Origin: Patescibacteria group bacterium
GTDB lineage: Bacteria > Patescibacteriota > Microgenomatia > UBA1400 > MFAQ01
Length of the DNA: 64,000 nt
NCBI GenBank assembly: GCA_943355005.1
Contig: CALRDV010000005.1
Location: 4,999-68,998, forward strand
Direction of reading: 5' to 3'
This document shows positions 10,033 through 59,007 of this stretch, in pieces. The translations under genes were made by a program, and so were the position numbers. Below the pieces are notes generated by a model. That model worked only from the letters and a program-made list of their open reading frames with translations. It was not told the DNA's origin and did not search any database. Numbering within the stretch: the first letter of the stretch is position 1; each line of letters begins with the position of its first letter.

Positions 10033-10419
10033 ATGAAAAGGTCAACTCAAAAAGGAAACGTCTTAATTACTCTGATAATTTTTATGTTGATTTCTACCAT
10101 AGTTATCTCAGCGGCGGTTGCTATGATAATTACCAATACCGGCGCAATATCCGGTATCGAGCAAGGCCAGATGGCTTACCAAGCAGCCGAAAGTGGAGTG
10201 GAAGAAGCTGTAATTCAGCTATTAAGAAACCCCAATTTCTCAGGCACTGTCAGCAATATTTCTACCGGACTTTCTAAATTCACCTATACTGTCAGTGTAT
10301 CTTCGCCCAAAACCATTGATTCATATGGCTCATATTTAGGCTTCAAAAGGCATATCTATGTCACCACCTCGTATAATTCAGGACAGTTAGTGGTCAATCC
10401 TTGGCAAGAATCTTTTTAA
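10033..10419 (+). CDS. Minor pilin-like (PilX-like) protein
   Basis: The start was chosen at MKRSTQKGNVLITLIIFMLISTIVISAAV, which directly abuts the previous stop codon. It has a hydrophobic N-terminal helix but no canonical G-F-xLxE motif. Confidence 0.4.
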   Translation: MKRSTQKGNVLITLIIFMLISTIVISAAVAMIITNTGAISGIEQGQMAYQAAESGVEEAVIQLLRNPNFSGTVSNISTGLSKFTYTVSVSSPKTIDSYGSYLGFKRHIYVTTSYNSGQLVVNPWQESF

Positions 10420-10432
10420 TTACAAAAAAACC

Positions 10433-11443
10433 ATGCCCAAAAAAAGAAACTCCATCATTAAAATAGAAGGTGATAGATTAATCTTCGAAAATTCGGATTT
10501 ATCCAAGTCTCTCAAATTTAATTATCCTGCGGATACAGTTAGAGATTTAGAAATACTTGATGCCGAGAAGTTGGAAGAGGGGATTCAAACTTTCATCACC
10601 AAGAATGAAATTTCTGCCGGTTCTCTGCTCTTGGTACTTTCCAAAAATATTACCTTCCAAAAATCAATTTCTTCTTCAAACATAGAACAAGAAAGAACAG
10701 CTTTCTTGGACAGTATACCTTTCGAAACCATCTCTTCCAAAATTTACGGGAAGAAGGATAGTCAGGTAATTGTCGCTACCAATCGAGATCTTGTTCAGAA
10801 ATTCCAATCAATATTTGTTCACCTAGGTTTTCAGGTTGAGGGTGTCGTTCCTGAAGAATTATTACCGGAAAATTACTCGGATCTGTACCTAAAAAAATCT
10901 ACATCCTATTCTCATCTCAGTATGGCAGGTAACTCCGGCTACAAAGAAACCAAAATCAATAAAATCGCCAAGAAAGAGATAGAAGCCAGCAAAAATCTGC
11001 GCTTACTCCTTACCCTCTTTGGATTTTCTTTCCTCGTCCTAGGTGGCGCCTACTACTACTCCCACCGAGAGTACGATTCGGCAAAAGTCTCAGAGGTTGT
11101 CATTCCCGACCTGATCGGGAATCCATCCGGAATACCTACAAACACATTATCCGACCCTTCCACCTTATCGGTCAAGATTTTATATCGTCCACAAGAGGAA
11201 TTATCAGCCAAGGAGTTGCAAAGTATTTTATGGTCAAGTGGTTTCAAGAATACCGATTTAGTTGCCACCACTTCCGCTGGCCTGAGCACAAATCTCTCTT
11301 TGTCGCCGAACCTTCCTCCAGACCTAATTCAAAAGATTCAAGGAGAACTCTCCAAAATCGACAAAAACTACACTGTTGACTCACTAGTTTCGGAAAATTC
11401 GGAAGTAACGATTTTACTTGCTAAATCAAGCAAAAAGCGATAA
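10433..11443 (+). CDS. Hypothetical pilus-assembly membrane protein (PilM/PilN-like by position)
   Basis: It has a single central TM helix (LRLLLTLFGFSFLVLGGAYYY) and sits between pseudopilin genes and the major pilin gene. I recognised no diagnostic motifs. Confidence 0.35.
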   Translation: MPKKRNSIIKIEGDRLIFENSDLSKSLKFNYPADTVRDLEILDAEKLEEGIQTFITKNEISAGSLLLVLSKNITFQKSISSSNIEQERTAFLDSIPFETISSKIYGKKDSQVIVATNRDLVQKFQSIFVHLGFQVEGVVPEELLPENYSDLYLKKSTSYSHLSMAGNSGYKETKINKIAKKEIEASKNLRLLLTLFGFSFLVLGGAYYYSHREYDSAKVSEVVIPDLIGNPSGIPTNTLSDPSTLSVKILYRPQEELSAKELQSILWSSGFKNTDLVATTSAGLSTNLSLSPNLPPDLIQKIQGELSKIDKNYTVDSLVSENSEVTILLAKSSKKR

Positions 11444-12257: not shown

Positions 12258-15200
12258 ATGACATCGAAATTTACGGGCGCCATCATCGTCGATTCCTCTT
12301 TTTGGGCAAAGCCCGGTGTCCAAAACAAATGGAAAAAAGCCCTAGATAAAATAGATACGGGATACCGCATTTTTGATAAGACAAAAAATAGGTTTGAAAT
12401 CAAGAAATCTCTCGCCAAATTCCTCAATGAAACTACAGCTCAAGAAGTTTTTCTAATAGACACCACACATACATCACCCTCCGACCTTGCCACCTTCTTC
12501 AAGTCAGCTCGTCACTCAGACAACCAGCTCTTCCTCCAATCCAATCCGTCCATCACTCCATTCCACAAAATCCTCTCCAAAAACCTGCACCACGGCCATG
12601 AAGTTTTAGCCTATTCACCTCTCAAACTTCTTCCCCAATCACTTTGCTACAATCTCAAACCCTCCGACCTCTCTTTTGGCACCGATCACGCCATCATCCA
12701 TCTCGCCACTCTGATGTCTCTCTCGATACAAAAAGTCGAGACCAAAATAATATCCAAGAAACGTCACCTACTTCAATCAAGTATTTCCCATCTATCCACC
12801 CGCCTTTCACCACCACGCCCGTATCACCTTCTGGGAGATAACTCGGACAATATGCTCGGCGCCGGCATGGTCCACAGAGGAAAAACTTTCATCACTCACA
12901 CCACTTTGAAAGAGCATCACAGCGCCACAAATACTTTTACTGTTCCTCAAGCTCTCACCGGACTATTTATCTTGCTCGTCCTCATCGCTGGTGTCCTCAC
13001 TTATCCCAGGAACACCATGATTGCTTTCACAGCCGTTCTCTCCACCATATATTTTATCGATGTTCTCTTTAATCTTTTCCTGGTGGGCAAAAGTCTTCAG
13101 ACACCTCCCGAATTGAAGTTCACCCCGGAAGAAGTGGCTAGTCTGAAAGACGAAGAATTACCGATTTATACCATCCTTGTTCCTTTATTCAGAGAAGCCC
13201 TCGTCCTCCCTGGTTTTGTCGAATCAATTTCCAAGATGAACTATCCTCAATCAAAATTGGATGTGCTTCTTCTCATGGAGGAGGATGATAAAGAAACTAT
13301 AGACGTCGCCAATTCTTTAAATCTTCCCGCCTTTATCCGCCAAATCATCGTGCCTCACTCCATGCCGAAGTCCAAGCCCAAGGCCTGTAACTACGGTTTA
13401 GCTTTTGCGAAAGGGGAGTACCTCGTAATTTACGACGCCGAAGATCATCCGGATGCAGATCAGCTGAAGAAAGCCATTTTAGGATTCCGTTCTTCACCTC
13501 CGGAAGTTGCCTGTCTCCAAGCCAAGCTAAATTATCACAACGCCAATCAGAATTTACTTACCCGTTTCTTTACCGCCGAGTATTCTTTGTGGTTCGATGT
13601 TGTCCTCCCCGGCATGCAGTCCATCAATACTTCCATTCCCTTAGGTGGCACTTCCAATCATTTCCGAGTCAAAGATATTATTAAGTTCCGAGGTTGGGAC
13701 GCTTTCAATGTTACCGAAGATGCTGACTTGGGTTCTCGCCTTTTCCGCGCCGGCTACCGCACTGCCATTGTTGATTCTGTCACTTTAGAAGAAGCCAATA
13801 GTAAAGTAGGAAACTGGATTCGTCAGCGTTCTCGCTGGATCAAGGGCTACATGCAGACCTATTTAGTTCACACTCGCGATTGGCGAACTTTTTACAAAGA
13901 ACAAGGCTTGCATGCTGTTATCTTTCAGCTCTCCGTCGGCGGCAAGATTGCCTTCATGCTCATCAATCCACTTTTGTGGGTTATGACCATTTCCTACTTT
14001 GCTCTATATAAATATGTTGGACCAACCATCGAGAGTTTTTACCCAACTCCCGTTTTCTACATGGCTGCGTTTTCTCTAGTCTTTGGAAACTTCCTTTTCC
14101 TCTACTACTACATGATTGGTGTCGCCAAGCACGGACACTGGACCCTGGTCAAATGGGTTTTCCTCGTTCCTCTTTACTGGTTACTTCTTAGTCGAGCTGC
14201 CCTCAAGGCACTTTATCAATTAGTCGTAAATCCACACTATTGGGAGAAGACTGATCACGGTTTACATTTTAGTTTCTTAGCCAAGAAACAAGCCAAAGCA
14301 GAACAGAAAGCCGCCCGCAAAAATAATCACAAAGTCTCTCTCTTCTTCCTCACCGCAATTCTTAATGTTTTAAACCTCCTCCAAAAACTCACTACTCCGA
14401 AACCATCCGTCATTGCGAGTTTCGGTAAACCGAACCGAAGCAATCTCACTCCATCAAACGACAATGTCATTCCGGGCTCGACCCGGAATCCAGAATCTGT
14501 CATTGCGAGCAAAGCGAAGCAATCTAGCTCAATAGCTTCGTCATTGCGAGATTCGTACTCGAACCGAAGCAATCTCATACCATCCAGACTCACATCATCA
14601 TTCAAAAAAGCCTACTACCACCCCCAAGCCGGTAGCATCATGCTCATCATCGCTTCCGTTCTCGGCAACTTCCTAAACTTCGTCTACAGCGCCTACCTCG
14701 GCAACACCATTAGTCTCGAGCAGTTCGGTCTCATCAGTCTTTTTGGCAGCTTTCTATATCTCACTCAAATTCCAACCAGTATTTTTGGAAGTTCCGTCAC
14801 CCGCGAAAGCGCTTTCTATTTTGGTAAGGAGAAAACTCAGCCCAAACATATTTGGAAACAATTTCGTCGCTGGGGAATCTACTTCTCTCTAATTCTTACA
14901 GTTATTTGGCTTCTTTCCATTCCATTTCTCCGGTCTATCTTCAAAGGCGATTCCTTTATTCCTTTTTACATATTCTCCCCGGTCATAATTCTCGGCTTAC
15001 TTTCTTCCGTTGATAGGGGGTTCTTGAATGGCACTCTTCGTTTCAAAATCCTCGCCACCGTCGGTATCACTGAGGCCGTCATTAAACTTCTGTTTACTAT
15101 CCTTTTGGTATCCATCAATCAGAAGCAGAATGTCTATCTCGCTCTACCTCTCTCCATGGCTTTCTCTTTCTTGCTTAGTTGGTTCTTCGCCAGCAGAGTT

Positions 15201-17039
15201 CCGGAAGACAGAGTGGTTACCGAAGATAAGAAAATAAAGTTCCCTTTCAAATTCGCCGGCACAGTTATTCTAAATAAACTTTCATTTGTCGCTTTCCTGG
15301 GTCTGGATATTGTGATTGCGAAAATAATTCTTTCACCCGAGGACGCCGGTCGCTTTGCCCTGGTATCGCTAGTTGGCAAAATGGTCTATTTTTTCTCCGG
15401 GCTTACAGGCCAGTTTATTCTCCCTCTCGTAAGTAAAGAGGAAGGTGCTTCGGGTAATCCTCAAAAAATATTTAGTCAAATCTTCCTGGTCACCATTTTC
15501 TTTACTGCAGTTTCTTATCTTGGTCTTGGCGTCTTTGGCTGGCTAAGTGTACCTCTCTTATTTGGCCCCAAGATGCTCGCAGTGATTCAATACTTGCCTT
15601 TTTATCTCCTCGGCATCGCTTCGTTTACTTTGGCTATGTCCATAATTTCCTATCACCAGTCCCGCAAGAAATATTTAGTTTCCATTGCCAGTTTTGCAAT
15701 TACCCTGATTCAGCTATTCATTCTCATTCGTTATTACCAAACCTTAAAAAGTTTTACCGTCACCCTCGGTATCTTCGGCATTATCCAGTTACTTGTCGCC
15801 GGTATCATGCATCGTCTCACTCGATATTCCACTGCCATAACCCAGAATTCTTACGCCTTTTTTAATCTCTTTAAATCACAAAAGAAATCAGATAAGGCTT
15901 TCGAAGGTCAGATCCGTTTCTTGATTTTCAATTGGCGTGATACCAAACATGTCTGGGCAGGGGGTGCCGAAGTCTACGTCCAAGAGCTTGCCAAAAACTT
16001 AGTAGAGAAAGGACACCAAGTCACCATCTTCTGTGGGAATGATGGAAAGAACTTGAATTCAGAAACCATCGACGGCGTGGAGATTGTCCGAAGAGGGGGT
16101 TTCTTCACTGTCTATATCTGGGCTGCTATCTATTATCTCTTCAAATTCCAGGACAGCTTCGACATCATCATTGATTCCGAAAATGGCGTTCCCTTCTTTA
16201 CTCCTTTCTATACCCGCAGACCCAAACTTTTATTGATCTTCCATGTTCACCAAGAGTTCTTTAGGGAAAATTTAAAGTTCCCAATGCTTCAAATAGCATG
16301 CTTTATGGAAAAAGTATTAATGCCAATTTTGTATAAAAACGAGAAAGTGATGACTATTTCAGAATCATCCGTTCAAGACATATTAAAGTTAGGTATCTTC
16401 AAAAAAGAGGATATATTTGTTGTAAATCCAGGGGTAGTTGTTGAATATCCTCCAGAGGTGACACCACTAACAGAATATCCATCATTGGTATATATAGGTA
16501 GACTTAAAAAATACAAAAATGTTGACATTGCCGTCAAAGCTTTTAAGAAAGTACTTGAAAAATTCCCGGATGCAATATTCAGTATTGGTGGTCATGGGGA
16601 AAGTTTAAGTCAGCTTACAAATTTAGTTAATAAACTCGGAATTCAAAAATCTGTAAAATTACTAGGACGTGTAACAGAGCTTCAGAAATCAAAACTATAT
16701 CAAGAATCATGGGTAGCTATACAGCCGTCTTCTTTTGAAGGTTGGGGAATTACCGTTATTGAAGCAAACTTATTTGGAACACCTGTTGTAGCTTCTAACA
16801 TACATGGGTTAAGAGATTCTATTGTCGACGGGGAAACCGGGATTCTAGTCAAGTCGAAAGACTCAAGTGCCTTCGCAAGTGCCATAAATAAAATATTCGG
16901 AAACAAAAAACTTAGATTAAGAATGTCCGTCGCCGGTGTAGAGCGAGCCAAAAAATTCAACTGGTCCGAAAACACCGACATCTTCCTCTCAGCCATTCAG
17001 CGATATTACCTAGACCTCAACTACAATGAAAACAAATAA
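12258..17039 (+). CDS. 1593-aa multidomain envelope-glycan megaprotein: an N-terminal unknown domain, a processive GT2 synthase-like domain, a repeat-derived linker, a polytopic MOP/Wzx-flippase-like membrane domain and a C-terminal GT4 glycosyltransferase
   Basis: The GT2 motifs are LLMEEDD, YDAEDHPDAD, TEDADLG and QRSRWIKG. The linker at 14408-14576 consists of four palindromic repeats. A membrane domain of about 12 TM helices follows (MLIIASVLGNFLNFVYSAYLGN...). The GT4 domain carries EGWGITVIEANLFGTPVVASNIHGLRDSIVDGETG. Confidence 0.7.
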   Translation: MTSKFTGAIIVDSSFWAKPGVQNKWKKALDKIDTGYRIFDKTKNRFEIKKSLAKFLNETTAQEVFLIDTTHTSPSDLATFFKSARHSDNQLFLQSNPSITPFHKILSKNLHHGHEVLAYSPLKLLPQSLCYNLKPSDLSFGTDHAIIHLATLMSLSIQKVETKIISKKRHLLQSSISHLSTRLSPPRPYHLLGDNSDNMLGAGMVHRGKTFITHTTLKEHHSATNTFTVPQALTGLFILLVLIAGVLTYPRNTMIAFTAVLSTIYFIDVLFNLFLVGKSLQTPPELKFTPEEVASLKDEELPIYTILVPLFREALVLPGFVESISKMNYPQSKLDVLLLMEEDDKETIDVANSLNLPAFIRQIIVPHSMPKSKPKACNYGLAFAKGEYLVIYDAEDHPDADQLKKAILGFRSSPPEVACLQAKLNYHNANQNLLTRFFTAEYSLWFDVVLPGMQSINTSIPLGGTSNHFRVKDIIKFRGWDAFNVTEDADLGSRLFRAGYRTAIVDSVTLEEANSKVGNWIRQRSRWIKGYMQTYLVHTRDWRTFYKEQGLHAVIFQLSVGGKIAFMLINPLLWVMTISYFALYKYVGPTIESFYPTPVFYMAAFSLVFGNFLFLYYYMIGVAKHGHWTLVKWVFLVPLYWLLLSRAALKALYQLVVNPHYWEKTDHGLHFSFLAKKQAKAEQKAARKNNHKVSLFFLTAILNVLNLLQKLTTPKPSVIASFGKPNRSNLTPSNDNVIPGSTRNPESVIASKAKQSSSIASSLRDSYSNRSNLIPSRLTSSFKKAYYHPQAGSIMLIIASVLGNFLNFVYSAYLGNTISLEQFGLISLFGSFLYLTQIPTSIFGSSVTRESAFYFGKEKTQPKHIWKQFRRWGIYFSLILTVIWLLSIPFLRSIFKGDSFIPFYIFSPVIILGLLSSVDRGFLNGTLRFKILATVGITEAVIKLLFTILLVSINQKQNVYLALPLSMAFSFLLSWFFASRVPEDRVVTEDKKIKFPFKFAGTVILNKLSFVAFLGLDIVIAKIILSPEDAGRFALVSLVGKMVYFFSGLTGQFILPLVSKEEGASGNPQKIFSQIFLVTIFFTAVSYLGLGVFGWLSVPLLFGPKMLAVIQYLPFYLLGIASFTLAMSIISYHQSRKKYLVSIASFAITLIQLFILIRYYQTLKSFTVTLGIFGIIQLLVAGIMHRLTRYSTAITQNSYAFFNLFKSQKKSDKAFEGQIRFLIFNWRDTKHVWAGGAEVYVQELAKNLVEKGHQVTIFCGNDGKNLNSETIDGVEIVRRGGFFTVYIWAAIYYLFKFQDSFDIIIDSENGVPFFTPFYTRRPKLLLIFHVHQEFFRENLKFPMLQIACFMEKVLMPILYKNEKVMTISESSVQDILKLGIFKKEDIFVVNPGVVVEYPPEVTPLTEYPSLVYIGRLKKYKNVDIAVKAFKKVLEKFPDAIFSIGGHGESLSQLTNLVNKLGIQKSVKLLGRVTELQKSKLYQESWVAIQPSSFEGWGITVIEANLFGTPVVASNIHGLRDSIVDGETGILVKSKDSSAFASAINKIFGNKKLRLRMSVAGVERAKKFNWSENTDIFLSAIQRYYLDLNYNENK
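14408..14576 (+). repeat. Tandem cluster of four palindromic repeats (types 2, 1, 2, 2) inserted in frame in the megaprotein gene
   Basis: Copies lie at 14408-14447, 14465-14493, 14499-14527 and 14538-14576. They translate as SVIASFGKPNRSNLT...VIPGSTRNPESVIASKAKQSSSIASSLRDSYSNRSNLI. Confidence 0.85.
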
Positions 17040-29547: not shown

Positions 29548-32223
29548 ATGCCCTCCGGCCAGAGATTTTCTCATCAAAAACTATTTTTAATTCGATTTCT
29601 TTTGATTGCTGGCTTTATTGGCAACGGTATCTATCTTTGGTGGCGGATGAATCCTTTATTTTGGAATAATTCTTTTCTTTCGATACTTCTTTTGGTTGCC
29701 GAATTGGTTTTTTTTGCAAACATGGTTATTCATCTTCCTGTGTTGTGGTTCCGGAAGCCCACACCTATTCCTTTAAGTCCGCCGGTAGGCCCGATAAAAA
29801 TTGCTTTAGTCATTCCTACCTACAATGAATCCATTAAGCTTCTATCCAATACTTTAAAGCACTGTCTAAATTTAGATATTCCTCCAAACATTAAACTTAA
29901 GGTTGTTGTCTTGGATGATGGACAGCGTCCGTGGCTGAAAGAATTTGTCTCCAAAGAAGGCCGTTCCGGCGGACGCACGAAGCTAGAATATGTCTCTCGC
30001 AGTATCAGGAATGGGTTTAAAGCAGGCAACATAAATCATTATTTGGAAGAATATTGCAAAGAGGATTGGCTCCTGGTTCTGGATGCAGACTTCGTTCCAA
30101 GACGTGACATTCTCTCCAAATTTTATCCTTATCTCGGGACAAGTAGTTTAGGCTTTGTCCAAGCCCCCCAAAGCTTTGACAATATCCCATTTACTGACCC
30201 CTTTGGCCAAGACCCCGACCTCTGGTTCTCGATATTGGAGGTAGGTAGAGAAGGTCAAGACTCTCTTATCTGCTGTGGCACTCCTACCATTTTTTCTGTC
30301 CCGGCTCTGCGCAAGATTCACGGCATGCAGTTAGGAGTGACGGAAGACTTCATTACGGGGGTTACTATGCAATCATACGGATATCGATCGGCATACATTC
30401 ACGAAACAATAGCTATTGGCAAATCAAGTACCGACATGGCAGATGTTACCAATAAAGCCGAAAGATACGCTTCCGGAGCATTTGAATTTGTTTTCGAGCG
30501 AAAAAAATGGCGTCTAGGACAAAAGCTAAGTTTTTGGCAAAAATTTATTCACTTTACCTACCCATTATCTTTTCTGGCCCCTCTTTTTACTCCAATTCTG
30601 ATTATGATGCCAATTATCTCTCTGATGACCGGAATAAGTCCTTTTGTCATCGATCAAAGCAGTAGACCTTATCTGGTAATTCAGCTACTTTCGCTTCTAA
30701 GTTTAGAGGTGATATTTTTCTCTTTGGTTGGCACCAAAGCCTGGCGTGCTTGGCAATTTTATTGGGGCATGTTTCCGGCTAGTTTTACCGCCGTTTTTAG
30801 GACATTATTTGGGCGGGCGATCTTTAAAGTCAGTGAAAAGGGAGATAGCAATCAGGTCTCCGGTCTGACTCAATTAAGATTTGTAATATGGCAATTGTTT
30901 TTCTTTCTGCTTGGGTTGGTCGCTCTGGCTCAATCCTTATTGTTGTTTGTAAGGGGAGAGTTAAATATTTCTCTTTATCCTGCAGTCGGATGGCTGATAC
31001 TAAACTCTGCACTTCTATCCGGTGTTATTAGTCCGCCGTTCCGCAAAATCGTTCTGGAATTTAAGTCCATCACGATAACCAAAAAAGTCTTAATTTTTGC
31101 ACCTCTATTGGCAACGTTTTTTATGATTGTATATCTTGGAAATGTCGTGAGAGATAAGTTCGTAACACCGAGCGACAGAATCCAAGATGAGGAAGTTGTC
31201 GGAAATGTTTCCAAAAATGCAGACCGGTTCGCTGTCTCACTTGATAGAGTAAATGCCAAGCTAAGCAAAACCGGAGAAAATAATTTTCAAAAATTATTAT
31301 TCTTTATTGGCTGGGACGAAAACACAGAGGAGTCAGGTATTGCACAGTTCAAAAGCGAAGTCGAACCGGTCCTAGATCTCGCATACAGTCGTCATATGAC
31401 TCCTATCATTACTTGGGAGCCAAAATTTACGGATTCAGCCAAAAGTCTTTCTTTGACGGATATTGTTTCCGGTGATAGTGATAGATATTTGAGGGGATGG
31501 AGAAGTGAATTGCAGAAATGGTTTGACACACATAAAGGATATGAAGTAAGGATTCGCTTTATGCATGAAATGAATGCGCCTATTGCAGAATATCCTTGGA
31601 GTCATTTAGCCCCTGCGGACTATAAAGCAATACATGAACATGTTTATTCCGAGATTGGTCAAGTCGAAGGTAATTTGAAGTGGATGTTAGTCTTCCAAAA
31701 TTTGACTTCGGATGCCAACTGGCAAAACAAGCGTGCCTCCGATTATGAAAAATACGTTCCAAATATTCCTTTTGAGTACATTGGAATAGATGGATACAGC
31801 CGTCCTTTTAAGAAAGGAATCGACGGCCCTCCCGGAGGTGAAGTCACTCCTCAACAAGTACTTCCCGAGGCATTTTTCCGGATCATGCACGAGAAGTTCC
31901 CGAAGGCTCAGCTGGTGATAAGTGAAACCTCTGTGCCGTATTTATCCAAGACCGACGAAGCTGTACCGTATCCGACAGGAAAGACATCTTTCAAGATGAC
32001 GGACACGGAAAGATCTGAATGGATTAAAGATTTGCAACAATACACCATTAAACTTGGGCAAAAATACGGACTATCGGAAGTTACTTGGTTTGATGGTAAT
32101 ACAGATTATCACTGGTCACTCATTGCTCCGGAAGATAAGCTAACTATCGCCTCATTTGGAAAAATGATTTCAGCATTACAGGCCAGTGGAATTGCTGTTG
32201 GGATTTATCCGGGGGGAAAATGA
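29548..32223 (+). CDS. Fusion protein: an N-terminal processive GT2 (cellulose-synthase-like) membrane synthase and a C-terminal GH26-like glycoside hydrolase domain
   Basis: The GT2 motifs are IALVIPTYNES, VVVLDDGQ (DDG), LVLDADFVP (DxD), VTEDFITG (TED) and AERYASGAFE (a degenerate QxxRW). Six or more TM helices follow. The C-terminal domain has ITWEPKF, IRFMHEMNAPIAEYPW (the GH26 R-x-x-HEMN acid/base box) and LVISETSV (the nucleophile region). Confidence 0.7.
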   Translation: MPSGQRFSHQKLFLIRFLLIAGFIGNGIYLWWRMNPLFWNNSFLSILLLVAELVFFANMVIHLPVLWFRKPTPIPLSPPVGPIKIALVIPTYNESIKLLSNTLKHCLNLDIPPNIKLKVVVLDDGQRPWLKEFVSKEGRSGGRTKLEYVSRSIRNGFKAGNINHYLEEYCKEDWLLVLDADFVPRRDILSKFYPYLGTSSLGFVQAPQSFDNIPFTDPFGQDPDLWFSILEVGREGQDSLICCGTPTIFSVPALRKIHGMQLGVTEDFITGVTMQSYGYRSAYIHETIAIGKSSTDMADVTNKAERYASGAFEFVFERKKWRLGQKLSFWQKFIHFTYPLSFLAPLFTPILIMMPIISLMTGISPFVIDQSSRPYLVIQLLSLLSLEVIFFSLVGTKAWRAWQFYWGMFPASFTAVFRTLFGRAIFKVSEKGDSNQVSGLTQLRFVIWQLFFFLLGLVALAQSLLLFVRGELNISLYPAVGWLILNSALLSGVISPPFRKIVLEFKSITITKKVLIFAPLLATFFMIVYLGNVVRDKFVTPSDRIQDEEVVGNVSKNADRFAVSLDRVNAKLSKTGENNFQKLLFFIGWDENTEESGIAQFKSEVEPVLDLAYSRHMTPIITWEPKFTDSAKSLSLTDIVSGDSDRYLRGWRSELQKWFDTHKGYEVRIRFMHEMNAPIAEYPWSHLAPADYKAIHEHVYSEIGQVEGNLKWMLVFQNLTSDANWQNKRASDYEKYVPNIPFEYIGIDGYSRPFKKGIDGPPGGEVTPQQVLPEAFFRIMHEKFPKAQLVISETSVPYLSKTDEAVPYPTGKTSFKMTDTERSEWIKDLQQYTIKLGQKYGLSEVTWFDGNTDYHWSLIAPEDKLTIASFGKMISALQASGIAVGIYPGGK

Positions 32224-51424: not shown

Positions 51425-53269
51425 ATGCGTTACTTTTTTCAGATCATTTCAACTATCGCCAAATTCGTTTCTCGCTACCGCATAGAATTTTTACTCTTAC
51501 TTCTTGTCATTCCCGCAATTAGCGATGTTTTTAAAGAAGGTTTTATGCCTATGCATGATGATCTTCAAGTTCTCAGGTTAGTTGAGGTCCACAAGTGTAT
51601 TTTGGATGGTCAGATACCTTGCCGATGGGTTCCGGATGCCGGTTTTGGCTACGGATACCCTCTAATGCAATTTTACCCTCCCATGCCTTATTACCCCATG
51701 GAGCTCATGGTTTTACTGGGGTTTGGATTTTTCTTCCCGGTTAAAGTCATGTTTGCTTTAGCTTTTGTTCTCAGTGCCCTCGGTATGTATTTGCTGGGGA
51801 AGGAGTTTTTTGGAAAATGGGGTGGCATCCTAGCCTCGGTGTTATACGTCTATTCTCCTTATCATTCTGTCGACGTCTATGTCCGTGGTGCTATGAACGA
51901 AGCTTGGGGGATGGTCTGGTTCCCGTTCGTCCTCCTCTACATCTACAGACTTGTCTCCCGCCAAGGCGGGACTCACACCGCCCCGTCATTGCGAGGTACT
52001 CCGTGGCAATCCAGTTTAGCAAAAATTAAATTTCAAGTTAGTTCGGATTTTATTTACCTCAGTATCGCCATAGCTCTTCAGCTTACTTCCCACAATGTTA
52101 TGACTCTCGTATTTGCCCCTACGGCCATTATTTGGGCATTATTCTGGATGTGGAAGCTAAAATCATTTGACAAGATAAAAGACCTCTTCTTCTCTGGCTT
52201 ATTCGCTTTAGGTCTTTCTGCTTTTTTCTTTATTCCTGTCGTGTTGGAGCAGAAATTTGTGCACGTAGACTCTATGACAAGTGGCTATTTTAATTATTTA
52301 GCCCATTTTGCCGACATAAAACAACTTTTTTGGACTAGATTCTGGGGCTATGGTGGTTCTACTTGGGGGCCGGAAGATGGCATGTCTTTCTCTGTCGGTC
52401 ATTTTCAGTGGATCGGCGTTATCCTCGCCGGCACCGTTGCCTCATTAAGACTCTACCGCCTCAAATTTTACAAAAAAAGCTCCGTCATTGCGAGTCTCGT
52501 AGTCGAGCCGAAGCAATCTCAATCCACCAAATCATCCTCATTAAACCTCATGATCCTTTTGACCATCGCTTTTGGTTTTGGTTATGCCTTCCTCACCCAC
52601 AGCCGATCCAGTTTTATATGGGAGAGACTTCCTGTCTTGCAATACGCTCAATTCCCATGGCGCTTGGTCGCTCTAATCGTTTTTTACTTTTCTTTTGCTA
52701 CCGGTTATTTAGCTACCGTCACTCTGCCAAAAATTTTCAAAACGGTTGCCCTTACTACACTTATTGTTAGTATCATTTTATTCAATCTTCCCTTTTTCAA
52801 ATTCGAACGCCATGTCAGAGTGACATTTCAAGAAAAATTGTCCGGACTTTCTTGGGAAAATCAGGTCACTGGAGGTATCTTTGATTATCTCCCGAGGACA
52901 GCTTCCAGACCTCCAGGAGATCCGGCTTTCACTATTCCCATATACATCGAAGGTCAGGGTGGCATTCTCAACTACCGTTCCGGGTCAAATTGGATTACTT
53001 TCGATGCTTATGTTTCTACAGACACTTCCAAAGTTATGATACCTATGTTTACTTTCCAAGGAATAAAAACCAAGGTGGATTCCAAAAAAGTGATTACCGA
53101 AATGGATCCTGACTTAGGCAGAGTTATTTTTAGTCTTGATAAGGGACTTCATCACGTCGAAGCCAAGATTGGCTATACCAAAGTCAGACTTATTTCCGAT
53201 CTATTAACTCTCTTTTCATTCATTCTTTTAATAAAACTACTTCGCGATGATCGAAAACACACCTCCTGA
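51425..53269 (+). CDS. Large polytopic membrane protein (GT-C/YfhO-like) containing two in-frame palindromic-repeat insertions
   Basis: It has about 13 TM helices and a C-terminal beta-rich soluble domain. The repeats at 51984-52014 and 52483-52520 translate to SLRGTPWQSS and SVIASLVVEPKQSQS. Confidence 0.5.
   Translation: MRYFFQIISTIAKFVSRYRIEFLLLLLVIPAISDVFKEGFMPMHDDLQVLRLVEVHKCILDGQIPCRWVPDAGFGYGYPLMQFYPPMPYYPMELMVLLGFGFFFPVKVMFALAFVLSALGMYLLGKEFFGKWGGILASVLYVYSPYHSVDVYVRGAMNEAWGMVWFPFVLLYIYRLVSRQGGTHTAPSLRGTPWQSSLAKIKFQVSSDFIYLSIAIALQLTSHNVMTLVFAPTAIIWALFWMWKLKSFDKIKDLFFSGLFALGLSAFFFIPVVLEQKFVHVDSMTSGYFNYLAHFADIKQLFWTRFWGYGGSTWGPEDGMSFSVGHFQWIGVILAGTVASLRLYRLKFYKKSSVIASLVVEPKQSQSTKSSSLNLMILLTIAFGFGYAFLTHSRSSFIWERLPVLQYAQFPWRLVALIVFYFSFATGYLATVTLPKIFKTVALTTLIVSIILFNLPFFKFERHVRVTFQEKLSGLSWENQVTGGIFDYLPRTASRPPGDPAFTIPIYIEGQGGILNYRSGSNWITFDAYVSTDTSKVMIPMFTFQGIKTKVDSKKVITEMDPDLGRVIFSLDKGLHHVEAKIGYTKVRLISDLLTLFSFILLIKLLRDDRKHTS
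51984..52014 (+). repeat. Palindromic repeat, type 2, inserted in frame in a CDS (a 30-mer identical to the intergenic copy at 12138)
   Basis: The sequence is CGTCATTGCGAGGTACTCCGTGGCAATCCAG. Confidence 0.85.
52483..52520 (+). repeat. Palindromic repeat, type 2, inserted in frame in a CDS
   Basis: The sequence is CGTCATTGCGAGTCTCGTAGTCGAGCCGAAGCAATCTC, and its inner hairpin resembles the copy at 1553. Confidence 0.85.
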
Positions 53270-54725
53270 CGCCCCATCGGTACTTGAAGTCCAAGAAGTA
53301 AAAAGACGGAGTATTTCCGGTGTCCTAGCTCTCATATCTCGTACTTTCATCATTCAAATTATCTCCTTTGTTGCCACCCTTGCTCTTACCATTTTTCTGG
53401 ACCCAAACACTTACGGAATCTTTTATCTTGTTTCTTCGGTCGTCAACTTTATGGCATATTTTTCCGACGTCGGTTTGGCCGCAGCACTAATTCAAAAAAA
53501 GGAAGCTATTACCAAGGAGGATCTCTCCACTACTTTTACTATTCAACAAATATTGGTTCTATCTCTGCTTACCATCTTGTTTGTCTTGTCTCCGATAATT
53601 CAAACTCAGTATCAAATTGATCAGTCAGGGATGTATCTACTTTATGCCATGGGTGTTTCTCTTTTCTTGAGTTCGCTAAAGACAATACCTTCCATCATGT
53701 TGGAACGGGAAATCAAATTCAATAAACTAATTCTTCCCCAAGTTCTGGAAACTCTTGCTTTCAATTTTGTCGCCGTCTTCTTTGCGTGGAAGGGTTTTGG
53801 AGTCACTGCTTTTACTTTTGCTGTTCTCGCAAGGGGAGTTGTCGGTCTGATTGCTTTATATATTGTCTACCCATGGAAGCCAATTTTCGGCATCAATCGC
53901 TCCTCGCTTTCTCATTTACTAAAGTTTGGTTTACCATACCAAGTAAATACATTTTTAGCTGTATTGAAAGATGATGGTATGACGATTATTCTGACCAGAA
54001 TAATTGGAACACAGGGACTGGGCTATATTGGTTGGGCCTCCCGGTGGGCCGGTTTACCTCTAAGAATTGTGATGGATAACTTGACTAGAGTTTCCTTCCC
54101 AACTTTTGCGAGACTCCAGCACGACAAAGAGAGATTGGCTAAAGCCGTCGAGATTAGTCTTAAATATATGTGTCTTTTAACTTTTCCGATTCTTGCCGGG
54201 ATGGGTTTCCTGGCTTTGCCCATGACCCACTTGATTCCACGGTACGCCAAATGGCTTCCGGCCATTATTCCTCTTTACCTATATCTGTACAATTCTGCTT
54301 GGGCCAGCATTAGCACCAGTCTGACAAATCTACTAAATGCTACCGGTCATATAAAATCTACTTTCAAACTCATGCTTATGTGGACAGGTCTCACTTGGGC
54401 CATTATGCCAATATTGTCGATTAAATTTGGGTATATGGGAGTTGCTTTTGCTACCGGAATTATTGCCACTTCTTCCATAGTCACCATTATTATGGCCAAA
54501 CAACATGTCAACTTTAGTATGATAAATATAGTTAGAACTCCTCTTCTCGGATTACTTCCCATGATCTTCTGGCTCTACTTGTCAGTCGGCTCTATCGGTT
54601 CATACACTACCTTGGTCGGCATCATCATTACTTCTGCTATCATTTATTTTGGTTCAATATATATTTTGGAAGGCAAATTATTTTTTACGGATACGCTTAG
54701 TTACTTCAAGATCAAACATGTTTAG
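53247..54725 (+). CDS. Polysaccharide biosynthesis flippase (MOP superfamily, Wzx-like)
   Basis: It has 12-14 TM helices. The N-terminal MOP-type helices carry Arg/Lys (ISRTFIIQIISFVATLALT), and the size of 492 aa fits. Confidence 0.65.
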   Translation: MIENTPPDAPSVLEVQEVKRRSISGVLALISRTFIIQIISFVATLALTIFLDPNTYGIFYLVSSVVNFMAYFSDVGLAAALIQKKEAITKEDLSTTFTIQQILVLSLLTILFVLSPIIQTQYQIDQSGMYLLYAMGVSLFLSSLKTIPSIMLEREIKFNKLILPQVLETLAFNFVAVFFAWKGFGVTAFTFAVLARGVVGLIALYIVYPWKPIFGINRSSLSHLLKFGLPYQVNTFLAVLKDDGMTIILTRIIGTQGLGYIGWASRWAGLPLRIVMDNLTRVSFPTFARLQHDKERLAKAVEISLKYMCLLTFPILAGMGFLALPMTHLIPRYAKWLPAIIPLYLYLYNSAWASISTSLTNLLNATGHIKSTFKLMLMWTGLTWAIMPILSIKFGYMGVAFATGIIATSSIVTIIMAKQHVNFSMINIVRTPLLGLLPMIFWLYLSVGSIGSYTTLVGIIITSAIIYFGSIYILEGKLFFTDTLSYFKIKHV

Positions 54726-57700
54726 AAAACTATTAGTCATAGTCGCCATTATTTTCTTCAGTCTGCCCGGAAAAGCTTCAGCATTCAAGGCAGATACTTT
54801 TGTGACTTTTGCGAATCCTGTCCGCGGTCCGGAAAATTGGCAAGCGGGAAAGCAAGATCCCCTGGCTCTTCCGAAGTTTCAGTATGCCGAGTCTACTCCC
54901 TCCGCTTACCCCATCACCTGGCTACTTCGCTACGATGCAGTCCGAGATTCAACGATGTCCGCTTTTTTCAAGACTCTTTCGGAATCCGACAAGACTCAAA
55001 CCTTAGGTGCCTTTTTGGAGATTACTCCAAAGCTAGCGAGTGATTCGGATGTTTCATACCCTGCCGGCACTACTCCATTCAATGCCAATCGAATTTTCCT
55101 TTCCGGCTACACGACAGACCAAAGGACCAATCTGATCGACACCTTCATGGCAGCTTTCTTTGTGGAGTTCGGTTACTACCCTAAGTCGGTAGGGGCTTGG
55201 CACCTGGATAGTTATAGTCTGCAGTATCTTCAATCAAGATATTCCGTCCTTACTGCCATGAACTGCGACGACCAATACTCTACGGATAATTACCGGATTT
55301 GGGGAGGGTACTTGGGTAGTCCTTATTTCCCTGACAAAAACAATTCCTTAATTCCTGCGAACTCCTCTTCCAATCGAATCAATCTAGCTATGGTTCGCTG
55401 GGCTCAGCGTGATCTCTTTAACTTTTATGGATACCGATCCGAATCTTCTTACTCCGTACAGGTAAACGATTATCTGGCTCAAGGTCAAAACACCAAGTAT
55501 TTCGAAAAACTTTTAGGTCAATATTCTCAGAAGAAAATGAACGAGTTTACCTATATCAATATTGGTCTGGAAAACGACCACAGTCTACTTGAATACAAGT
55601 CCGAAATAAAAAATGTCTACAAACTACTCATTGCCAATCAGGGGACGTACAATCTCCGATTTACCTCTCTTTCTGATTTCGGTGATTGGTTCAAAGCTCG
55701 TTATCCGGAGAGCTCTCCGGCTTATTACTACGAGTCTACGGACCCACTCAGTGCCAGGTCGGGTAAGGTCTACTGGTACCAAAGTCCTTGGTATCGCATT
55801 GGCTTCAAATCCGAAAACGGTAGTACTAAAATCGTTGATTTCCGAGTCTACAATCGCAATGTTTTTGAGGATTATCTCCATACCCCAAATCAAGGTTTAA
55901 ATCTCTATCAGGAGATTCCGGCAGTCATCGATTCCGTCAAATGGCCAGGTACCGAAGCAGTATTGAGCTTTGATATGGAAAAAGCGACCTTTGTTTACTC
56001 GAAGCAGTGGGATTATTGGCAAGTTGCCTTTAAGTCCGGAAATCAAACTCTCACATTGTATCCAGACAAAATTTCCTTCACCGGTTTTTCGGCACCGTCA
56101 ATTTCATCCAAAGACGTAAAGTCTGTTTCCAAGAAAGACACTACCACCTGGGAACTAACTCCTTTCACGCCATTCCAAAAAACTTCCAAATTCACCTGGC
56201 TCTTCTGGCTAGTGGTTATCATTGCCGTGATCAAAATCATCAAAAGATTTAAAAATCCTCCTACTTCGTCATTGCGAGATTCGGTACACCGAACCGAAGC
56301 AATCTCGTCCACAAAAACATCCGTCATTGCGAGGATATTCCCGAAGCAATCTAGCTCATCAACCACTCCAGTATCCGTCATTGCGAGGAGCGAAGTGACG
56401 TGGCAATCCAGGAATTTACTTTTCGGCATTATCATCGCCCTCCTCGCCACCCTTACCGTCCTCCGAAACGGACTCCTTTATCCTTTTGGTATGGGTTTCT
56501 GGGGACCAAATGGACACGACGCCATTTTTCATCTTTCTCTAATCGAAAAATTCGCCACCAACCCCTTTAGTTTTGTTCACCCGCAAATTGCAGGGGAGAA
56601 GATAGCCAATTATCACTTTATTTTTGATTTTATTTCCGGACTTATTGTTAAACTCTTTGGAATATCATCTATTGATCTCTATTTTCGGATTTTCCCTGTC
56701 ATTGCCGGTATCGCTATCGTGTTTCTTCTTGATAAGCTTTTAAAACTCTGGAACTACAACGCTCAAGAAAGATTGCTAGCGATTTTTCTAGCCTTTTTAG
56801 CCGGTTCATTTGGCTTTATCTCCAAGCTCTTTGTGGGGCAGAGTATTTTTGCCGGGGAATCATCTTTCTGGTCCAATCAGTCTGTTTCCATATTTCTAAA
56901 CCCTCCCTACGCCCTCTCACTAATTGTGCTGTTAATTTTTTTACTTCAACTTTCTCGTCATTCCGGGCTTGACCCGGAATCCAGAAATTTGTCATTGCGA
57001 GGAGGTAATCCGACGTGGCAATCTACATCCATCAACCGCCATGATTATTTTCCCCTCATCCTCCTTGGCGCCCTCCTAGCCCAAACAAAAATTTACGCCT
57101 TTATCCTGCTTCTCGGCGCTCTACTATTTTCTAAGAGATACAAGCTCTTTATCGGAGTATTGGTATTAGGTGTTCTTATTTCTTTGCCCTTCACGACTCT
57201 TGGTGGACCGTCTCCGTTTCTTTTCTCACCTCTTTGGTTCCCCAGAAGTCTTTTTGCTTCTTTTGATCGCATGTATTGGCCACAGTTGGTTCAAGCTTGG
57301 CAAGCATACGAGGCTTCAGCGAATTTTGTAAAGTTGGCCTTAGTAAATCTTTTTGCTCTCGTAATTTTTCTTGTAGGCAATCTAGGAATGAGATGTTTTG
57401 GCTTATTGGAAGTAATTAAGACTAAGTCACAATCTGTCTCAGAATCTCTTGTCCGATGGATAATTCTTTTCGGCCTTATCACCCCCATACTTTTTGTCCA
57501 GAATATCAATCCCTGGAACACTATCCAGTTTATGTATTATTCTCTCTTTTTCTTAGCCCTCTTCACTGCCAAGTGGCTTTCAAAACAAAATATATTACTT
57601 TTTCTACCATTGGTATTTCTTGCCACTCTCACCTCCATTGGCACTCTCCAAGACTACATCGGTTTTTTCTCTGCTTCCAGAATTAGTTATTCCGAGCTCT

Positions 57701-58086
57701 TGGCTCTAGACAAATTAAGAGACCAATCAAAAGGAATTGTCCTGGCTCCGCTTTTTAATCAAGCCGAGTCAGGCGCAATTTTTGCCCCCAAGCCTTTGTA
57801 TTCTTATGTTTCCACGGCATATATCTCAGGATTGTCAGGTCAGCCTGAATATCTGGCAGACACAATAAATCTAGACATTACCGGCTTCAACTACACAGAC
57901 CAAGCTAGAGATATTCAACGCTTCTATGTGACAGGGGATAAGCAATGGGCTTTGGATTTCTTATCCAAGAACAAGATTAAATACGTCTACGAAACCCCAC
58001 TCCGGAAAATACATTTAGCTCCGGAGGATCTCAAACTCAAGAAAATCTTTGACTCAGGAGAAATAAACGTATATAAATTTAACTAA
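54718..58086 (+). CDS. Very large envelope protein: a periplasmic N-terminal domain of about 500 aa plus a polytopic membrane domain, containing five in-frame palindromic-repeat insertions
   Basis: The start was taken at MFRKLLVIVAIIFFSLPGKASA (a signal peptide), because the ORF start at 54649 overlaps the flippase gene. The repeats at 56267-56412 and 56956-57025 translate as SSLRDSVHRTEAISS, SVIARIFPKQSSS, SVIARSEVTWQSR, RHSGLDPESR and LSLRGGNPTWQST. Confidence 0.5.
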   Translation: MFRKLLVIVAIIFFSLPGKASAFKADTFVTFANPVRGPENWQAGKQDPLALPKFQYAESTPSAYPITWLLRYDAVRDSTMSAFFKTLSESDKTQTLGAFLEITPKLASDSDVSYPAGTTPFNANRIFLSGYTTDQRTNLIDTFMAAFFVEFGYYPKSVGAWHLDSYSLQYLQSRYSVLTAMNCDDQYSTDNYRIWGGYLGSPYFPDKNNSLIPANSSSNRINLAMVRWAQRDLFNFYGYRSESSYSVQVNDYLAQGQNTKYFEKLLGQYSQKKMNEFTYINIGLENDHSLLEYKSEIKNVYKLLIANQGTYNLRFTSLSDFGDWFKARYPESSPAYYYESTDPLSARSGKVYWYQSPWYRIGFKSENGSTKIVDFRVYNRNVFEDYLHTPNQGLNLYQEIPAVIDSVKWPGTEAVLSFDMEKATFVYSKQWDYWQVAFKSGNQTLTLYPDKISFTGFSAPSISSKDVKSVSKKDTTTWELTPFTPFQKTSKFTWLFWLVVIIAVIKIIKRFKNPPTSSLRDSVHRTEAISSTKTSVIARIFPKQSSSSTTPVSVIARSEVTWQSRNLLFGIIIALLATLTVLRNGLLYPFGMGFWGPNGHDAIFHLSLIEKFATNPFSFVHPQIAGEKIANYHFIFDFISGLIVKLFGISSIDLYFRIFPVIAGIAIVFLLDKLLKLWNYNAQERLLAIFLAFLAGSFGFISKLFVGQSIFAGESSFWSNQSVSIFLNPPYALSLIVLLIFLLQLSRHSGLDPESRNLSLRGGNPTWQSTSINRHDYFPLILLGALLAQTKIYAFILLLGALLFSKRYKLFIGVLVLGVLISLPFTTLGGPSPFLFSPLWFPRSLFASFDRMYWPQLVQAWQAYEASANFVKLALVNLFALVIFLVGNLGMRCFGLLEVIKTKSQSVSESLVRWIILFGLITPILFVQNINPWNTIQFMYYSLFFLALFTAKWLSKQNILLFLPLVFLATLTSIGTLQDYIGFFSASRISYSELLALDKLRDQSKGIVLAPLFNQAESGAIFAPKPLYSYVSTAYISGLSGQPEYLADTINLDITGFNYTDQARDIQRFYVTGDKQWALDFLSKNKIKYVYETPLRKIHLAPEDLKLKKIFDSGEINVYKFN
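56267..56412 (+). repeat. Three tandem type 2 palindromic repeats in frame within a CDS
   Basis: The copies lie at 56267-56306, 56322-56354 and 56376-56412. Confidence 0.85.
56956..57025 (+). repeat. Type 1 plus type 2 palindromic repeats in tandem, in frame within a CDS
   Basis: 56956-56984 is CGTCATTCCGGGCTTGACCCGGAATCCAG. 56990-57025 is GTCATTGCGAGGAGGTAATCCGACGTGGCAATCTAC. Confidence 0.85.
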
Positions 58087-58089
58087 TAC

Positions 58090-59007
58090 ATGTCAAAAAC
58101 GAAAATCTCAGCTGTCGTCAATACACGCAATGAAGCGGATAATATTTTTGATTGTCTAAAAACTTTGGGTTTTTGCGATGAGATCGTGGTGGTTGATATG
58201 GAATCTGAGGATAATACAAAAGAAATAGCCAAGGAGTTTACAGATCGCATTTATGATCACAAGAAAACAGGCTTTGTTGAACCTGCCAGAAACTTTGCTA
58301 TCAAAAAAGCACTTGGGGATTGGATACTTATTGTCGATGCAGACGAGAGAATCCCAAAATCTTTAGCTGTTAAGCTAATCGAAATCGCCAATCTGGACCA
58401 AGCGGATTTTGTCAGGGTCCCCAGAAAAAATATTGTTTTTGGTCAATGGCTTCAGCATTCTCGTTGGTGGCCGGATTACAATATCCGCTTCTTCAAAAAA
58501 GATTCTGTCGAGTGGCAGGAAGAAATTCACTCTGTTCCTATTACGTATGGCAATGGTCTAAATTTGGAGCAAGAATCGGCGATGGCGATAGAGCATCACC
58601 ATTACAGAAGTATCGATGAATACTTTGTTCGTTCTCTTCGATACTCAAATCAACAAGCAAAAGAGCTTATTGAATCGGGTTACAAATTCGAGGCTGCCGA
58701 TTTAATTAAGAAACCCATGGGTGAATTTCTTTCCCGTTTTTTTGCAGGAGAAGGTTACAAGGATGGTCTTCATGGTTTGATAGTTGCCATGCTGCAGTTT
58801 TTCTCCATTTTACTTATCTATCTCAAGGTTTGGCAGTTTGAGGAGCGAAAGCCTATCAAAGGACGCGAGTTTACCCGTGTTTGGCAAGCAGCGTTTTTGG
58901 ATAAATTCAAAGAATTCCGATACTGGTATTTAACTGTTCTCATTCAGAATTCACGCTCAAAAACCGAGGCATTTTTCCTCAAGCTCCGTCGCCGTCTCCA
59001 AAAATAA
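58090..59007 (+). CDS. Glycosyltransferase family 2
   Basis: It has ISAVVNTRNEADNI, VVVDMESEDNT and IVDADERI (DxD). Confidence 0.75.
   Translation: MSKTKISAVVNTRNEADNIFDCLKTLGFCDEIVVVDMESEDNTKEIAKEFTDRIYDHKKTGFVEPARNFAIKKALGDWILIVDADERIPKSLAVKLIEIANLDQADFVRVPRKNIVFGQWLQHSRWWPDYNIRFFKKDSVEWQEEIHSVPITYGNGLNLEQESAMAIEHHHYRSIDEYFVRSLRYSNQQAKELIESGYKFEAADLIKKPMGEFLSRFFAGEGYKDGLHGLIVAMLQFFSILLIYLKVWQFEERKPIKGREFTRVWQAAFLDKFKEFRYWYLTVLIQNSRSKTEAFFLKLRRRLQK

Follow-up and report, generated by a model that had tools for sequence, protein, structure and literature searches.

Five short, oriented, hairpin-forming DNA repeats lie in frame inside the open reading frame (ORF) 54718-58086 of an ultra-small bacterium of the candidate phyla radiation (CPR), on a 64-kb stretch of contig CALRDV010000005.1. 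This whole stretch is called the window, and all coordinates follow its numbering unless another locus (L001, L122 etc.) is named. With a probability of roughly 0.72, we regard the five repeats as copies of a dispersed, strand-oriented hairpin family resembling the NTS repeats of Neisseria and the Ssn-related motifs (SRM), copies of which survive in genes where they are in frame and tolerated. The assignment to a cosmopolitan, nuclease-associated, NTS/SRM-like family is the main point by which the present analysis goes beyond the preliminary description of this DNA, whose coordinates and translations of the five copies (residues 517-565 and 747-770) proved to be correct.

The copies form two groups, K1 to K3 and L1/L2 (table 1), and they are not chance matches, because their counts far exceed those expected or obtained by shuffling. 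The type-2 head GTCATTGCGAGG, with up to two mismatches, is found 15 times in the window, where 3.4 matches are expected and where 15 was reached in none of 100 shuffles; the type-1 26-mer is found four times against an expectation of 0, and the matches to both motifs are on the plus strand only. Altogether the window contains 19 intact elements, every one of them on the plus strand. ORF 54718-58086 carries five of these in 3.4 kb, where about one is expected (Poisson P ~0.004), followed by ORF 12258-17039 with four copies within 170 bp; it is indeed the largest in-gene accumulation in the window, as had been claimed. The data are as compatible with the further suggestion that the gene may be a preferred target or recombination hotspot as with tolerance of inserts alone.

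Table 1. Coordinates, reading and predicted folding of the repeats, their inserts and the related units; energies were computed for single-stranded DNA and z-scores against shuffles
Feature	Position	Strand	Sequence, reading or description	Fold energy (kcal/mol)	z-score
Host gene	54718-58086	+	1122 amino acids from ATG at 54718
Insert 1 (K1-K3)	56266-56412	+	residues 517-565, 49 extra; K/R-rich loop between transmembrane helices TM1 and TM2
K1, type-2 hairpin element	56267-56305	+	CGTCATTGCGAGATTCGGTACACCGAACCGAAGCAATCT	-8.4
K1 plus 17-nt conserved tail	56267-56322	+	read in phase 2 as SSLRDSVHRTEAISSTKTS
K2, shortened, decayed type-2 element	56322-56352	+	phase 0, peptide VIARIFPKQS; 5-bp basal stem alone remains	-2.6	~0
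K3, type-2 element of GAGGAGCGAAGTGACGTG subtype	56376-56412	+	phase 0, peptide VIARSEVTWQSR	-6.2	between -1.2 and -1.6
Insert 2 (L1/L2)	56956-57027	+	residues 747-770, 24 extra; loop between two later transmembrane helices
L1, type-1 element	56956-56985	+	CGTCATTCCGGGCTTGACCCGGAATCCAGA; peptide RHSGLDPESR	-8.5	-3.2
L1 perfect 8-bp hairpin			ATTCCGGG CTTGA CCCGGAAT
L2, type-2 element	56990-57024	+	phase 2, peptide SLRGGNPTWQS	-4.7	between -1.2 and -1.6
Peptides spanning the K1-K3 / L1-L2 inserts			SVHRTEAISSTK; NLSLR/GGNPTWQSTSINR
Hairpin-ssn-hairpin unit, L125	13346-13790 (L125)		between host-gene orthologue and next GT2 gene
Hairpin-ssn-hairpin unit, L127/L128	3904-4417 (L127/L128)		between host-gene orthologue and next GT2 gene

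Every copy consists of an oriented head, (C/T)GTCATT, a palindromic stem and a tail, AATC(C/T); the head is present in all five copies of the ORF and in 19 of 19 copies of the window. The type-1 consensus is GTCATTCCGGGCTTGACCCGGAATCC (L1), and a variant, type 1b, reads GTCATTCCCGACCTGATCGGGAATC and lies at 11099 and 38920; both form perfect 8-bp hairpins, the stems of which differ by compensatory changes. The type-2 consensus, shared by four of the five copies, is GTCATTGCGAG...(CGAA or GTG)GCAATC(C/T), and its layout has a basal stem of 5 bp (ATTGC/GCAAT) that stays constant, a distal hairpin that varies and a small internal mismatch. Among the 36 distinct type-2 sequences from the gathered loci the basal stem is common to all, and the distal stems (ACCGTG/CACGGT, ACCCGCC/GGCGGGT, GGTCGC/GCGACC, TCTCG/CGAG, TTCGG/CCGAA) differ yet stay complementary, that is, they covary. 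L1 and L2 make up a type-1/type-2 pair, comparable to a pair at 14466-14525. All three reading phases are used by the elements, which results in unrelated peptides.

The ends of the elements lead to a repeat system known from Neisseria. NTS is a 28-nt oriented hairpin repeat, CGTCATTCCCGCGMAVGCGGGAATCYRG, which is bound by SsnA, a single-domain GIY-YIG nuclease of 94 amino acids that cuts just 5' of it; cutting is restricted to single-stranded DNA and to one strand, three bases before the palindrome govern the cutting, the C after the palindrome is critical for binding, and RNA is not bound (PMC11893778). The ssn genes are typically bracketed by their repeats, and many phyla have SRM; both the nucleases and the motifs date from a 2025 description, in which the repeats are extragenic and modulate natural transformation in Neisseria (PMC11893778, Nat Commun 2025). 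L1 (CGTCATTCCGGGCTTGACCCGGAATCCAG) is identical to NTS over 9 nt at each end, and five of five copies keep both the GTC that precedes the palindrome and the C that follows it. The elements are here called Ssn-associated hairpin repeats, with type 1 as a near-canonical member and type 2 as a divergent, extended variant.

The same elements are distributed far beyond the CPR. At least 120 stretches of GTDB genomes contain the exact type-1 26-mer; they come from more than 20 phylum-level groups, including the CPR groups Gottesmanbacteria and Moranbacteria, and type-2 copies are also found in Rickettsiales, Jettenia and a betaproteobacterium. Copies of the 26-mer arranged in arrays or co-oriented sets are seen at L022, L129, L140 and L134; in an Armatimonadota genome (L022, 5493-5706) the exact 26-mer is repeated five times in tandem with a 47-nt period, no ssn gene being seen on that stretch, and one ORF of Gottesmanbacteria (L071) contains two copies. 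A scan of viral contigs found the 26-mer on 12 stretches, where no ssn gene was present and where high-GC ORF noise prevails; two contigs of IMG/VR (~57% GC) carry 6-10 co-oriented copies, likewise with no ssn gene on those stretches. These viral matches are not informative about a vector.

The link to a nuclease is provided by GIY-YIG genes that are flanked by the elements in related genomes. In L125 such a gene follows directly after the orthologue of the host gene and is bracketed by two type-2 hairpins in inverted arrangement (-9.4 and -9.6 kcal/mol). At the same position L127/L128 contain a GIY-YIG gene that has one copy upstream of it and, downstream, three inverted copies in tandem, and the GIY-YIG gene of L126 is accompanied by four tandem type-2 copies upstream and by one inverted copy downstream. 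In all of these loci the upstream and the downstream type-2 copies are oppositely oriented, each pointing towards the GIY-YIG gene. In L122 another GIY-YIG gene is followed by an inverted type 1b element, and in Sulfuricella (L066) a GIY-YIG gene of 95 amino acids has the exact type-1 26-mer on both sides. On L126, a Collierbacteria-like contig of 790 kb (features at 3791-3949 and 8094-8264), the upstream copies have a 44-nt period and a Bro-N gene is adjacent.

Between the host-gene orthologue and the next GT2 gene, the hairpin-ssn-hairpin unit is present in L125 and L127/L128 (table 1) and absent in the window, L122, L123 and L124; because of these absences it is taken as a presence/absence polymorphism. 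In the window the stop codon at 58086 and the next start at 58090 are 3 nt apart at that spot. The Collierbacteria GIY-YIG protein has 97 amino acids, matches PF01541 alone (E 1.3e-14), is 59% identical to the Sulfuricella one and counts at least 7967 homologues at E<=1e-10; across CPR and Proteobacteria the identity is 60-70%. Its Y9, Y20 and E67 are spaced exactly as Y6, Y17 and E64 of the 94-residue SsnA (CAX49033.1 of N. meningitidis). A search of PDB sequences gave a weak match to UPF0213 (1zg2, E 0.004), and NCBIfam gave sub-threshold matches to intron endonucleases alone. The single domain of about 94 amino acids, together with the spacing of the catalytic Tyr/Tyr/Glu, identifies the Collierbacteria proteins as putative members of the Ssn nuclease family (cd10448).

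Several features of the elements would suit REP/BIME-type repeats mobilised by RAYT, a member of the Y1 HUH family, with no role for a GIY-YIG nuclease: they are imperfectly palindromic and short, carry an oriented flank on the 5' side, occur in arrays and have the strand bias typical of single-strand transposition, and a weak match to PF01797 (Y1_Tnp) is located 4 kb from the ssn gene of L126. However, that Y1_Tnp gene is not adjoined by an element, the window contains no match to a Y1 transposase, and in each of the five cases examined (L066, L125, L126, L127/L128 and L122) the gene that the elements bracket encodes a GIY-YIG protein. REP elements carry a GTAG head, unlike the ends found here, which match those of NTS (CGTCATT...AATCY), and 67% of the elements are intragenic. 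Mobilisation by RAYT is therefore considered quite unlikely.

The comparison of the host protein with its homologues indicates that the repeats are insertions, because most homologues do not contain them and because the orthologues differ in the type and frame of the elements at three loops. There are 257 detectable homologues, the named ones from Candidatus Collierbacteria, Microgenomates and Woesebacteria, and 116 sequences were aligned for the comparison of lengths and for AlphaFold2 (AF2) modelling. The segment matching residues 505-575 has 16-29 amino acids in 110 of the 116 homologues versus 71 here, and the segment matching residues 738-785 has 21-32 in 108 of the 116 versus 48 here. 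The expansions are confined to the closest Collierbacteria relatives, in which different elements in different frames occupy the three common loops, yielding peptides such as SSLR.., VIARS.., HSRPDRE, VIPDLIGNL, VIPGLTRNL and VILAKAGIH. L122 has K1 and carries other elements at the positions of K2 and K3; the second site holds type 1b or type 2 in L124 and L125; in L125 and L122 elements also lie in a third loop, which is empty in the window; and L123 contains zero such elements in 14.6 kb. Variation in copy number across orthologues, proposed as a check in the preliminary description, is thus borne out: both number and element type vary, and the three loops are hit in different lineages. No target duplication was found at the sites compared among the orthologues.

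Together with its 17-nt tail, K1 is identical to its counterpart in L122 in 50 of 55 nt, the two genes being 71% identical and the surrounding loop unalignable, which points to a recent arrival, to homogenisation between copies or to constraint on the element sequence. A neighbour of the host gene, the PMT_2-like gene at 51425-53269, contains two in-frame elements (51985 and 52484) and displays a similar pattern of shared and replaced copies. One of its sites has type 2 in the window and type 1b in L122 and L125 (in L125 with a nested insertion), and the other has a nearly identical type 2 (35 of 36 nt versus L122).

The regular spacing of K1-K3 (55 and 54 nt) could suggest that the inserts arose within the gene, by slippage, tandem duplication or recombination between its own loops, and the preliminary description had spoken of a triple tandem. 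In L123 a private three-copy repeat, CCGCACCTCGCACCAA-N4-TTCGCCCTAATAACT (10210-10244, 10774-10808 and ~11360-11390; peptide APRT..FALIT, identical in P0008), occupies the three loops that hold hairpin elements in other lineages. This repeat means that exchange between loops of one gene does occur. As a mechanism for K1-K3, on the other hand, the triple tandem is not upheld: the three copies are of different subtypes (38, 30 and 33 nt) with unrelated spacers, and Tandem Repeats Finder reported nothing for 54000-58500. Moreover, each subtype has nearly identical counterparts elsewhere, both in and between other genes as well as in other phyla; near-identical copies of the K3 subtype, for example, are present in L125, L126, L001 and the Rickettsiales loci L094 and L120. 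An origin within the gene is thus largely refuted and very improbable.

It is even less probable that the array is an artefact of metagenome assembly, in which short repeats were mis-joined. This exact protein is known from one contig, and repeat-flanked ssn genes are often situated on very short contigs, which implies that such repeats break assemblies. Against this, the ORF is uninterrupted, and to either side of the inserts it is colinear with its homologues, K1 with its tail occurs at the identical site in the independent assembly L122, and inserts comparable to those of the window are present in L124, L125 and L127.

To describe the distribution of the elements more generally, a census requiring an intact basal stem was made for the window, the 10 kb upstream of it, L122, L124 and L125, which together give 144 kb of Collierbacteria DNA. 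This DNA contains 49 elements, 33 of which (67%) are intragenic, all in sense orientation, and 16 intergenic. As 95.6% of this DNA is coding, the 16 intergenic elements fall in a small non-coding share, and intergenic DNA is about 7-fold enriched for elements. Minus-oriented copies are found beside ssn genes and in intergenic DNA of L126. In other phyla, 20 of 118 copies of the 26-mer among the matches listed lie in ORFs of at least 200 codons, in either orientation. Thus a location within genes seems to characterise these compact CPR genomes, as the 26-mer is mostly extragenic elsewhere.

Avoidance of stop codons was considered as the cause of the exclusive sense orientation and rejected, because the reverse orientation of the elements also leaves two frames open; the sense orientation may instead reflect that self-cleavage is avoided on the strand that replication exposes. 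The GC skew is negative on the coding (plus) strand nearly throughout, reaching -0.15 to -0.24 at 10-16 kb and 56-58 kb, and consequently the direction of replication is unreadable from the skew here.

That all 33 intragenic copies are sense although the reverse would give two open frames could also be expected if the elements acted in the mRNA, as ribosome-pausing hairpins after a transmembrane helix or as sites of processing or stability, or if their peptides were selected as cytoplasmic linkers. The inserts do follow directly after transmembrane helices, and conservation is higher in K1 than in the surrounding gene. Such functions are difficult to reconcile with the use of three frames that encode unrelated sequences, with the intergenic copies and with the occurrence of both orientations around ssn genes and in L126. 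Most homologues lack the elements, K2 has decayed, and in other phyla the 26-mer is mostly extragenic. SsnA binds no RNA (PMC11893778), and a scan for terminators and promoters found none of the five elements to resemble an intrinsic terminator or to have a terminator-like T tail. No family reached the gathering threshold in an Rfam scan of the whole window, where a scan for tRNA and tmRNA likewise gave none. Taken together, a function in the mRNA or in the peptides seems unlikely.

The explanation that we prefer, an NTS/SRM-like family surviving in genes where it is tolerated, can be put as a sequence of conditional steps. The elements would be recognition hairpins of an Ssn-type GIY-YIG nuclease. 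Their spread would proceed either through gene conversion among copies or through some strand-specific process on single-stranded DNA. In genomes that are ~96% coding, most landings would be inside genes, and those copies would survive that are in sense orientation, have a stop-free frame and are located at sites tolerating 10-50 extra residues. In the host gene this would apply to three short loops that connect transmembrane helices and probably face the cytoplasm. The encoded peptides would then be passengers: disordered, hydrophilic, frame-dependent and missing in most homologues. The K1-K3 and L1/L2 arrays would grow by successive arrival or replacement beside existing elements, without tandem duplication, and the copies might affect recombination or transformation at an envelope-glycan locus.

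A number of observations weigh against this explanation. First, regular-expression and hidden Markov model searches found no GIY-YIG gene across the 64 kb of the window and 10 kb of upstream sequence (L001). Second, the elements do not conform exactly to the published SRM pattern, HGTCWYN(0-2)YYVSBRHN(0-5)WNVSBRGN(0-2)RNCYNB, which was built by hand from 29 genomes of 4 phyla (PMC11893778) and was treated here as a search heuristic: it has 0 exact matches in the window, all seven type-1/1b copies of the window are one substitution away from it, and the type-2 hairpins exceed its length limits. Third, the weakly folding in-gene copies (K2, K3 and L2) may no longer be substrates. Fourth, the sense-only orientation is confounded with the direction of replication, because nearly all genes here are on one strand. 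Finally, to our knowledge no Ssn has been shown to transpose or copy DNA.

A bolder proposal is that the arrangement of hairpins on both sides of ssn, each pointing inwards, represents a class of mobile element, so far unrecognised, whose driver is a GIY-YIG nuclease acting on single strands. Solitary hairpins would then spread strand-specifically and would routinely colonise coding sequence in gene-dense CPR genomes, giving rise to lineage-specific peptide loops and fused genes. They might also seed Ssn cut sites in envelope-glycan genes, so that incoming single-stranded DNA would be fragmented there. A lineage-hopping element would fit the presence/absence of the ssn unit, the 26-mer that is identical in more than 20 phyla and the nuclease that is 60-70% identical across phyla. 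We nevertheless regard this proposal as tentative and rather doubtful.

The host protein consists of a signal peptide, an exported domain (residues ~24-485), a polytopic membrane domain and a C-terminal globular domain. The exported N-terminal and polytopic C-terminal parts agree with the preliminary description, and the two parts are now provisionally assigned as DUF3863/deacetylase-like and GT-C/oligosaccharyltransferase-like. The window protein itself has no Pfam and no NCBIfam match. AF2 modelling with the 116 sequences gave a mean predicted local distance difference test score (pLDDT) of 91.3 and a pTM of 0.89, superseding an earlier run with 24 sequences (pLDDT 61.6). As had been stated, K1-K3 follow the first transmembrane helix (TM1, residues 490-512). 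In the model, pLDDT falls below 50 solely at residues 517-551, within the K1-K3 insert, and the L1/L2 insert is next weakest (mean 58-59 over residues 751-770, with flanks above 85). The view that a hydrophilic insert resides in a membrane domain is supported by the in-frame position, the lengths of homologues and the model, according to which the translated inserts are predicted to be disordered, hydrophilic loops in an otherwise well-folded protein. According to hydropathy and K/R counts, the loop of insert 1 has 10 K+R versus 3 D+E, and by the positive-inside rule the three insert-bearing loops are probably all cytoplasmic.

Structure prediction of the N-terminal domain, another suggestion of the preliminary description, led to an assignment. 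Foldseek matched the modelled domain to PDB 3LM3, a DUF3863 putative glycoside hydrolase/deacetylase (E 2.4e-12, TM-score 0.62, 413 columns), and also to CE4-type deacetylases, and several orthologues have a precomputed match to PF12979 (DUF3863). The exported domain is accordingly predicted to be DUF3863 (PF12979)/polysaccharide-deacetylase-like. For the membrane and C-terminal part, Foldseek returned the GT-C proteins AglB (3wak), STT3 (6ezn_F), PglB (6gxc_A) and DPY19 (7zlh_A), with E from 3e-7 to 8e-4 and TM-scores of 0.34-0.43. The loop after TM2 has three residues, H600, D601 and H605, that do not vary among the 116 homologues. The model thus suggests a GT-C/oligosaccharyltransferase-like membrane part. 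The conserved cluster around the host gene comprises genes for GT2, PMT_2, a Wzx-type flippase, GT4 and YfhO, on account of which the host protein is taken to be an envelope-glycan enzyme. In L124 (146-499) and L125 (106-420) a small 23S_rRNA_IVP gene (PF05635) lies upstream of the glycan cluster, in opposite orientations in the two loci, and no such gene is found at the corresponding place in the window.

Several known systems resemble the elements in part. With NTS/SRM and Ssn they share the oriented hairpins that run from a CGTCATT head through a palindrome to an AATCYRG tail, their over-representation and clustering, the element-ssn-element architecture (seen in relatives), a GIY-YIG partner of ~95 amino acids and the wide phylogenetic spread. 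They differ in that two thirds of the copies are intragenic, in frame and sense, whereas PMC11893778 describes no intragenic copies, and in that the architecture of type 2 (basal stem of 5 bp, internal mismatch, varying distal hairpin) falls outside the published pattern. The host is here a CPR bacterium; cleavage and the role in transformation are known from the Neisseria system, and the present case is read from sequence. REP/BIME with RAYT are similar as imperfect palindromes of 20-40 nt with an oriented flank, as arrays, in the enzyme gene bracketed by repeats and in the single-strand DNA hairpin as presumed substrate; they are, however, extragenic by definition, and their partner is a Y1 HUH transposase rather than a GIY-YIG nuclease. 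The NIME/dRS3 arrays of Neisseria likewise are mosaics of hairpin subtypes with short spacers near genes for surface structures, but they are intergenic, whereas the arrays described here are translated within a membrane enzyme.

The closest parallel in behaviour is provided by the Rickettsia palindromic elements (RPE), palindromic repeats inserted in frame in unrelated genes as peptide segments tolerated at the surface (PMC10969869). Both are in-frame passengers of protein-coding genes. RPE, however, have ~100-150 bp and one conserved peptide in one frame per family; the elements here have 26-38 nt, use three frames, are linked to GIY-YIG genes and have no sequence similarity to RPE. Terminal inverted repeats with target-site duplication and a family-specific peptide, which mark RPE and MITE elements, are not what is found here. 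The literature searched contained no description of in-frame palindromic or hairpin repeats in CPR/Patescibacteria.

What emerges is a known kind of repeat with new behaviour: mostly intragenic, always sense and translated in any open frame. The elements turn over at a few permissive loops, and the nuclease gene comes and goes next door, so that the empty and filled sites and the shared and replaced copies constitute a natural data set for how Ssn-linked repeats spread. After RPE this would be a second example of selfish repeats remodelling proteins. Segments such as VIARSE.., SSLRG.., HSGLDPES and VIPDLIGNL in CPR proteins are repeat read-through, not domains; such read-through inflates protein lengths, and the elements break assemblies and can fuse genes. 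If Ssn acts as in Neisseria, the copies would be cut sites for incoming or exposed single-stranded DNA and would affect recombination at the glycan locus. CPR bacteria depend on DNA uptake, and a nuclease/hairpin system editing incoming single-stranded DNA would therefore matter biologically. Type IV pilus/secretion ATPase and platform genes (MshEN + T2SSE, T2SSF) are located at 4562-7224 (L001 14422-17084), which would be relevant if the repeats act on DNA imported by competence.

Some minor observations concern other parts of the window. ORF 12258-17039 (1593 amino acids) joins a GT2 domain (residues 304-611) and a GT4/GT1 domain (residues 1235-1559), and an array of four elements, in the order type 2, type 1, type 2 and type 2, lies in the middle of it at 14409-14575; these elements may bridge two formerly separate genes. 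Two look-alikes, head-only or stemless, were also noted, GTCATTGCGGGG... at 3414-3456, directly past the stop of ORF 2226-3395, and GTCATTCCTACC... at 29809-29832; both are probably decayed copies or chance matches.

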